In this document: positions 53,975 through 54,279 of the stretch, in pieces
Position numbering within the stretch: position 1 is the stretch's first letter
How the letters are laid out: the number at the start of each line of letters is the position of its first letter
Source of the DNA: Escherichia coli
Lineage (GTDB): Bacteria > Pseudomonadota > Gammaproteobacteria > Enterobacterales > Enterobacteriaceae
Direction: 5' to 3' (one strand)
Assembly (NCBI RefSeq): GCF_045037415.1
Contig: NZ_CP173438.1
DNA: 64,000 bases
Notes under the pieces: generated by a model
Told to the model about the DNA's origin: nothing
Database searches by the model: none
Seen by the model: the letters and a program-made list of their open reading frames with translations, nothing else
Translations under genes and position numbers: made by a program

Positions 53975-54148
53975 AATAAATTCATCTGTTGATCGTGGGT
54001 GTTGGCCTGATGAGTTATAGCGATCCCTTGCTGAAAATAACATCATCATTACGTCGCACTGTGGCGGCTATCGCACTTTAACGTTTCGTGCTGCCCCCTC
54101 AGTCTATGCAATAGACCATAAACTGCAAAAAAAAGTCCGCTGATAAGG

Positions 54149-54178
54149 CTTGAAAAGTTCATTTCCAGACCCATTTTT
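54149..54178 (+). promoter_or_regulatory. sigma-32 heat-shock promoter of ibpAB
   Basis: cttgaaa (-35), 14-bp spacer, cccattttt (-10), matching the sigma-32 consensus CTTGAAA / CCCCATnT. Confidence 0.7.
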
Positions 54179-54180
54179 AC

Positions 54181-54279
54181 ATCGTAGCCGATGAGGACGC
54201 GCCTGATGGGTGTTCTGGCTACCTGACCTGTCCATTGTGGAAGGTCTTAGATTCTCGCTGATTTCAGGAGCTATTGATT
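54181..54279 (+). promoter_or_regulatory. ibpA 5' UTR (location of the ROSE-type RNA thermometer)
   Basis: ~100-nt leader between the sigma-32 promoter and the ibpA ATG; thermometer assigned from literature, not folded here. Confidence 0.5.

Follow-up and report, generated by a model that had tools for sequence, protein, structure and literature searches.

We found that the ibpAB locus of this Escherichia coli chromosome is very probably under layered control, the best explanation being a sigma-32 promoter, folded leaders that mask the Shine-Dalgarno (SD) sequences, and feedback by the IbpA protein. The control region is a canonical, well-studied and already known element, so its correct recognition mainly validates a first reading made from sequence alone (hereafter the initial annotation). 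It lies in a 64,000-nt stretch of DNA, analyzed as a whole and referred to here as the window, in which the gene order is yidR-yidQ-ibpA-ibpB-yidE. RefSeq annotates, in this order, yidR, yidQ (minus strand), a 73-nt 'ROSE' feature, ibpA, ibpB and yidE. What was observed in this analysis comprises sequence motifs, a family match, conservation and covariation, as described below, and the coordinates of all features are collected in Table 1. The 1.55-kb region around the promoter and leader was found in 5419 of 5426 genomes, with many complete E. coli chromosomes being 100% identical over it. In E. coli strain E138 (NZ_AP022351.1 4736239-4738565), an IS1-like (IS1X4) insertion splits the otherwise identical 1.55-kb region in two.

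Table 1 Features of the ibpAB region and related loci, in window coordinates.
Feature	Position	Strand	Basis and details
yidQ	5' side ends at 53974	-	RefSeq
Sigma-32 (RpoH) promoter, -35, CTTGAAA	54149..54155	+	Read directly; majority base in 99% of 81 Enterobacteriaceae
Sigma-32 promoter, -10, CCCATTTT	54170..54177	+	14 nt after the -35; 93% conserved
ibpAB transcription start (putative)	54184..54187	+	Hairpin I begins at 54184; literature G71 numbering gives 54187
Hairpin I, ibpA leader	54184..54222	+	ViennaRNA; stable, about -21 kcal/mol at 30 °C
Rfam RF01832 ROSE_2 match	54214..54286	+	Hairpins II and III plus start codon; 96.6 bits, E = 2.7e-22
Hairpin II, ibpA leader	54225..54246	+	About -10 kcal/mol at 30 °C (stable); within the ROSE_2 match
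G54250 (C in K-12 MG1655)	54250	+	Replaces the outermost C-G pair of hairpin III (Rfam) by G.G; flagged by cmscan as a non-canonical pair
Hairpin III, ibpA SD hairpin	54254..54270	+	CUC-G-CUG / AUUU / CAGGAG; Rfam structure, RNAalifold
ibpA CDS	54280..54693	+	137 aa, small heat-shock protein; ATG at 54280, stop at 54691-54693
ibpA-ibpB intergenic leader	54694..54804	+	Between ibpA stop and ibpB start
ibpB leader hairpins	54701-54719, 54729-54749, 54751-54770 (UUCG loop), 54779-54796	+	Predicted fold
ibpB SD hairpin	54779..54796	+	CUC-G-CUUC / UUA / GAAGGAG; anti-SD UCGCU 54780-54784, bulged G54782, SD 54791-54796
ibpB CDS	54805..55233	+	142 aa
Intrinsic terminator closing ibpAB	55249..55278	+	GCCCCGCCA-TTC-TGGTGGGGC then T9; terminator scan (hairpin 55249-55269)
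Loci with variant ibpB leaders	L006, L007, L011, L013, L015, L016, L018-L020, L025, L055-L057, L073; L064, L065, L069, L074, L076, L078, L080, L047; L008		

The initial annotation had described a textbook sigma-32 promoter composed of cttgaaa, a 14-bp spacer and cccattttt, and this description was borne out: the three parts lie at 54149-54155, 54156-54169 and 54170-54178, where the block following the spacer reads CCCATTTTT, and the arrangement is both unique in the window and conserved. A search of both strands of the 64-kb window for CTTGAAA-N13-15-CCCATNT returned a single match, compared with 0.00 expected from 100 dinucleotide shuffles. The ibpA promoter has the form that we took to define sigma-32 promoters, namely a CTTGAAA -35 and a CCCCATnT-like -10 placed 13-15 nt apart, its -10 carrying three C residues versus four in the consensus. 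Conservation was evaluated in an alignment (A2) of the window and 80 IbpA loci (91-100% identical) from different Enterobacteriaceae species, covering positions -140 to +12 as numbered from the ibpA ATG. The spacer is 14 nt long in 80 of the 81 Enterobacteriaceae and 15 nt in the other one, while its sequence is just 49% conserved. Conserved elements at a fixed distance across a drifting spacer indicate that the promoter is under selection, and on this basis we identify CTTGAAA-14 nt-CCCATTT (54149-54176) as the very probable sigma-32 promoter of ibpAB. Published genomic SELEX with RpoH holoenzyme located a peak between ibpA and yidQ (PMC5493296), and heat induces the mRNA of ibpA, a member of the RpoH regulon (PMC9032294).

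The start of transcription would fall at 54184-54187, the downstream estimate following from published numbering, in which the bulged G of the leader is called 'G71' (PMC2896394), if G71 corresponds to G54257. This gives a leader of 93-96 nt up to the ibpA ATG, so that an earlier figure of ~100 nt for the 5' untranslated region was fair. No sigma-70 promoters were detected between 53600 and 55500, where 2.5 were expected. A sigma-54 promoter for ibpB was reportedly described in older literature. Scanning for TGGCACG-N4-TTGCW with up to three mismatches yielded 97 matches in the window versus 121 expected, none of them convincing upstream of ibpB; the sole match inside ibpA is a three-mismatch site at 54563. 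A sigma-54 promoter for ibpB therefore cannot be supported by the sequence.

Based on its family match and conserved structure, the ibpA leader is identified as a ROSE element and very probably an RNA thermometer, in agreement with the initial annotation. The Rfam ROSE_2 match reaches 96.6 bits, where the gathering score is 65, spans the full length of the model, and is the sole cis-regulatory match among three gathering-level Rfam matches in the window; RefSeq marks the identical 73 nt as ROSE, and the sequence agrees with K-12 at all but one base. ROSE elements are defined by a U(U/C)GCU anti-SD that pairs imperfectly with the SD and by a bulged G (PMC3669281). In hairpin III, the anti-SD UCGCU (54255-54259, with the bulged G at 54257) faces the SD AGGAG (54266-54270) across an AUUU loop, with CUC pairing with GAG, CUG pairing with CAG, and the SD located 9 nt before the ATG. 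The leader has the defining anti-SD and bulged G, places the SD in its 3'-proximal hairpin, and contains three hairpins in total, where two to four are required of a ROSE-like element. An earlier expectation of a U-rich anti-SD was mistaken: the anti-SD is UCGCU with its bulged G rather than a fourU-type sequence, and four U residues pairing with AGGA were found neither in the CUCGCUG that faces the ibpA SD nor in the CUCGCUUC that faces the ibpB SD. In previous work, expression from reporter fusions to the E. coli ibpA leader rose approximately 4-fold between 25 and 42 °C (PMC3669281), and three stem-loops together with self-repression by IbpA were described (bioRxiv 10.1101/2020.04.20.050740; PMC10410725; PMC10474464).

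Comparative data support the same structure. The core of hairpin III is 99.8% paired and essentially invariant across 80 distinct sequences, and its 17 nt are 99% conserved versus 68% at third-codon positions of ibpA, indicating strong constraint. Because it is invariant, hairpin III provides no covariation evidence of its own. Hairpin I has an inner stem that is 92% paired in A2, 7 of its 9 pairs showing compensatory changes, and hairpin II is 94% paired, with one pair alternating between A-U (35 sequences) and G-C (34 sequences). RNAalifold independently recovered the SD hairpin and the inner stem of hairpin I, including six pairs with compensatory changes. Over the whole alignment, the three-hairpin structure leaves 87.6% of cells paired, compared with 31-51% when partners are slid, and its covariation score of 0.232 (0.141 in shuffles) was reached in 0 of 500 shuffles; the single-sequence fold is moderate at z = -2.26. 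Rfam extends hairpin III by an outer helix of 2 bp (54250-54251 with 54275-54276), and this extension is only about 60% paired. Among 20 other genera, the homologous position exceeds the ROSE_2 threshold in 13. The remaining seven (L014, L032, L047, L050, L051, L062 and L072) score below gathering yet retain the invariant CUCGCUGAUUUCAGGAG hairpin, which indicates that the Rfam ROSE_2 model is narrow even for ibpA leaders.

Temperature-dependent folding, which the initial annotation had proposed as a check at 30 versus 42 °C, does not discriminate. When the RNA ends at the AUG, ViennaRNA predicts the SD hairpin at all temperatures from 20 to 50 °C, but the SD remains >97% paired at both of the proposed temperatures, with an unpaired probability of 0.01 at 30 °C and just 0.02 at 42 °C. 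Folded in isolation, hairpin III has a predicted energy of -5.0 kcal/mol at 30 °C and -3.4 kcal/mol at 42 °C, and removing the bulged G54257 adds about 3.8 kcal/mol of stability. When 8-20 nt of coding sequence are included, the minimum free energy (MFE) structure exchanges hairpin III for a pairing of CGC (54256-54258) with GCG in codon 2 (54283-54285), a fold in which part of the ibpA SD is exposed. This alternative requires a second helix, 54264-54267 with 54274-54277, whose 3' arm is unconserved across genera, and it is probably a prediction artefact.

Folding over a temperature series was accordingly rejected as a decisive test, its result hinging on the 3' boundary without clear melting. 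Nearest-neighbour models have no means of scoring the non-canonical pairs in ROSE elements, and a published ViennaRNA study found that ibpA melting rates did not differ significantly from those of ordinary mRNAs (PMC2896394). Given these limits and the dependence on the 3' boundary, the refutation originally proposed, that no stable hairpin would appear in folding predictions, is unsound. Two-temperature folding is thus unreliable as a test for ROSE elements, for which family models and covariation are reliable. In the same energy models, the weak SD hairpins (-5 to -3 kcal/mol) set against the upstream hairpins of the ibpA leader (-10 to -21 kcal/mol) match the published description of 'stable and unstable elements', and the stability gained on removing the bulged G matches the loss of thermosensing reported upon deletion of G71 (PMC2896394).

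The leader of ibpB was undersold by the initial annotation, which had correctly given its span (54694-54804) and its own aaggag SD (54791-54796): judged by motif and architecture, it is a second ROSE-like element, and by Rfam score it is a non-member. The predicted fold has an MFE of -40.4 kcal/mol (z = -2.63), and the energy of its SD hairpin, -5.1 kcal/mol at 30 °C and -3.2 kcal/mol at 42 °C, is nearly that of hairpin III of ibpA. In an alignment of ibpB leaders from 75 species (A3), the four-hairpin structure is 95.7% paired and 18 of its 30 pairs show compensatory changes, a result obtained in none of 500 shuffles; the three upstream hairpins all contain such changes. The SD hairpin is 100% paired across 74 distinct sequences, with invariant stems and a variable loop; six sequences carry UUGCU. 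A permissive Rfam search restricted to the 136-nt ibpB leader region ranked ROSE (19.3 bits), ROSE_3 (18.5 bits) and ROSE_2 (15.2 bits) as the top three of 4227 families. These scores are far below the gathering scores of all three models (45, 43 and 65, respectively), and none of the ibpB leaders from 20 other genera reached threshold. RefSeq carries no annotation for the element, so that a leader with a ROSE core escapes both resources. An RNA thermometer upstream of ibpB that responds to IbpA has already been described (bioRxiv 10.1101/2020.04.20.050740; PMC10410725), and, according to the literature, it requires IbpA to function.

The architecture of the ibpB leader varies by lineage. Its hairpin III is absent in the Citrobacter freundii-complex and Kluyvera; an extra hairpin (CAACTGCGCACAAAATTAAACTGTGCCG) precedes the SD hairpin in Enterobacter, Lelliottia and Silvania; and about 40 nt are inserted in the leader of Citrobacter amalonaticus. 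None of these lineages (Citrobacter, Kluyvera, Enterobacter, Lelliottia and Silvania) shows any change in the SD hairpin itself. Variation was also seen at the start of ibpB itself. In Kluyvera genomosp. 3 (L027, about 2008-2040), an apparent early 1-nt deletion (TTATCCCTCTGCTG versus TTATCCCCGCTGCTG) represents either a frameshift or an assembly error. The E. albertii gene (L003, about 2025) begins with ATGCCT and so encodes Pro rather than Arg at residue 2, and in Siccibacter (L032 and L054) ibpB starts two or three codons earlier (MTIRN, MMTLRN) and its leader is longer.

A terminator scan of 53600-55500 identified a single terminator-like site, the hairpin at 55249-55269 on the 3' side of ibpB, and weak Rfam small RNA (sRNA) matches at this position are generic terminator matches. 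The other two gathering-level Rfam matches in the window are the sRNA STnc410 (188 bits, 6455-6612, minus strand) and AsdA, the dnaA mRNA antisense RNA (99.7 bits, 38579-38659, minus strand). A role for the leader as a transcription attenuator was ruled out by the lack of a U-run after any leader hairpin. We also discarded an upstream open reading frame (ORF) of 11 codons (AUG at 54191, ending at 54226), which has no SD, lies inside hairpin I and lacks its AUG in many genera. On the minus strand, two short ORFs (54049-54174 and 54104-54235) cover the leader and overlap the promoter; both lack annotation and were treated as chance.

The initial annotation had assigned 54050-54279 to the promoter and leader. 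While both lie within this range, its first part (54050-54148) is not accounted for by that description and holds sequence blocks conserved across genera. Between yidQ and the -35 (54014-54138), the blocks conserved across 26 genera are GGTTATAGC (54014-54024), CGCACTGTGGCGG..ATCGCA.TTT (54055-54083), CAGTCTATGC (54099-54109) and AAAsTGCAAAAAAA (54119-54135). The minus strand here reads T8-TTGCAG-16 nt-TAGACT, and an A8 tract at about -51 to -58 from the putative ibpA start occupies the place of a distal UP-element subsite. These blocks are to be placed with the divergent yidQ side or with upstream promoter elements, and are probably promoter or regulatory sites of yidQ. Consensus RNA structure was not found in the yidQ-proximal blocks (RNAalifold, -2.7 and -1.3 kcal/mol on the two strands). 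A 6-bp inverted repeat, GTCTAT-GCA-ATAGAC (54102-54116), was rejected as an operator palindrome, its left arm alone being conserved across genera.

From 54102 to 54810, a span that includes the promoter, both leaders and the start codon, the window is identical to MG1655 except for G54250. Of 5417 complete E. coli genomes, 1103 have the identical 73-nt element with G, an O25b:H4-ST131 strain among them. C or T occupies this site in other Escherichia, in Citrobacter and in Salmonella, and the corresponding column of A2 contains A in 41 sequences, C in 20, T in 12 and G in 8. This common natural allele sits in a helix shown by the comparative data to be dispensable, and predicted energies at 37-42 °C are equal for the G and C alleles. 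The allele is most likely neutral. We consider it improbable that the derived G, through loss of the closing C-G pair of hairpin III, retunes either the set-point at which the ibpA thermometer acts or the way IbpA represses it in that lineage, and, as a separate matter, that the ibpB leader belongs to a diverged ROSE subfamily missed by current Rfam models.

As the promoter and leaders are those of K-12 except for one base, they can be linked to published K-12 experiments, from which sigma-32 dependence, temperature response and IbpA binding are taken here. Under the layered model, RNA polymerase with sigma-32 would start transcription at about 54184-54187 once sigma-32 rises upon heat or protein-folding stress. 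The resulting ibpA leader would form the stable hairpins I and II and the weak hairpin III, in which UCGCU, interrupted by the bulged G, pairs with AGGAG and would limit 30S binding at low temperature; warming would then gradually open this marginally stable hairpin and allow ibpA to be translated. The ibpB leader copies the design, with three stable hairpins followed by a UCGCU / bulged-G / GAAGGAG hairpin. Finally, IbpA would bind the structured leaders and repress translation of ibpA and ibpB until titrated by protein aggregates, in line with reports of IbpA repression through the leaders that is relieved by sequestration on aggregates (PMC10410725; bioRxiv 10.1101/2020.04.20.050740; PMC10474464). 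Together, these layers (sigma-32 transcription, an RNA thermometer and chaperone autorepression) make ibpAB a textbook case of heat-shock control.

The two regulatory layers of the leaders could be weighted differently, and it is possible, if tentative, that the leaders act mainly as IbpA operators for aggregation-sensing autorepression, with direct temperature sensing by the RNA being minor. Reporter and PURE system experiments established that IbpA represses ibpA and ibpB via their 5' untranslated regions and that weakening any of stem-loops 1-3 relieves repression (PMC10410725; bioRxiv 10.1101/2020.04.20.050740; PMC10474464). Counted from the translation, the IbpA encoded in the window retains R93, R97 and K98, the residues reported to be necessary for IbpA to bind its own leader (PMC10474464), and compensatory changes maintain hairpins I and II even though these make no contact with the SD. 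The nearly flat predicted opening of the SD between 30 and 42 °C points the same way. However, reporter fusions carrying the ibpA leader are induced about 4-fold between 25 and 42 °C, and 30S subunits bind related ROSE hairpins in a temperature-dependent manner in vitro when IbpA is absent (PMC3669281); owing to its invariant bulged G, the SD hairpin is of marginal stability, a property that would be expected in a thermosensor. Moreover, the two mechanisms have been described as cooperating rather than exclusive (bioRxiv 10.1101/2020.04.20.050740).

As a further alternative, which we regard as unlikely, the hairpins preceding the SD hairpin in each leader (I and II for ibpA, three for ibpB) could chiefly determine mRNA stability and processing rather than form part of the thermometer, by giving 5'-terminal stem-loop protection and defining RNase E processing of the bicistronic transcript. 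The very stable hairpin I begins at most 3 nt from the putative 5' end, and a GC-rich hairpin without a U-run (54701-54719) lies directly 3' of the ibpA stop codon. RNase E processing of the ibpAB operon transcript was reportedly described by Gaubig et al. 2011, which would also favor such a role. Protection from degradation is among the roles proposed in the literature, but mutations in stem-loops 1 and 2 alter both reporter translation and IbpA repression (bioRxiv 10.1101/2020.04.20.050740), and hairpin II is taken in by the ROSE_2 family model; in any case, translational and stability roles are compatible. The idea that the promoter-like motif and hairpins are chance features of AT-rich intergenic DNA can be regarded as already refuted. 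While the fold z-scores are only moderate (-2.26 and -2.63), the promoter motif had no expected matches, the ROSE_2 E value is 2.7e-22, none of the 500 shuffles or slid controls matches the covariation of either leader, and conservation stands at 99% in the SD hairpin versus 68% at synonymous positions.

Among known systems, the closest is the K-12 ibpA promoter and ROSE_2 thermometer (Waldminghaus et al. 2009, as cited in PMC3669281 and PMC2896394), which is the same locus and sequence, differing in the leader by C at 54250 where the window has G. The K-12 ibpB thermometer (Gaubig et al. 2011, as cited in bioRxiv 10.1101/2020.04.20.050740 and PMC10410725) is identical in sequence and, in those accounts, has several stem-loops, the last of which masks its SD. 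More distant relatives include Bradyrhizobium ROSE1 (RF00435) and the short ROSE-like elements of Pseudomonas (PMC3669281), which have in common with the window U(U/C)GCU, a bulged G, an imperfect 3'-proximal SD hairpin and a small heat-shock gene downstream. They differ in the number of upstream hairpins (four in ROSE1 and one in Pseudomonas versus two for ibpA and three for ibpB in the window) and show little sequence similarity to it beyond the anti-SD/SD core. The fourU element of Salmonella agsA likewise places a labile SD hairpin before a small heat-shock gene, but its anti-SD is UUUU, in contrast to the UCGCU with a bulged G found in the window.
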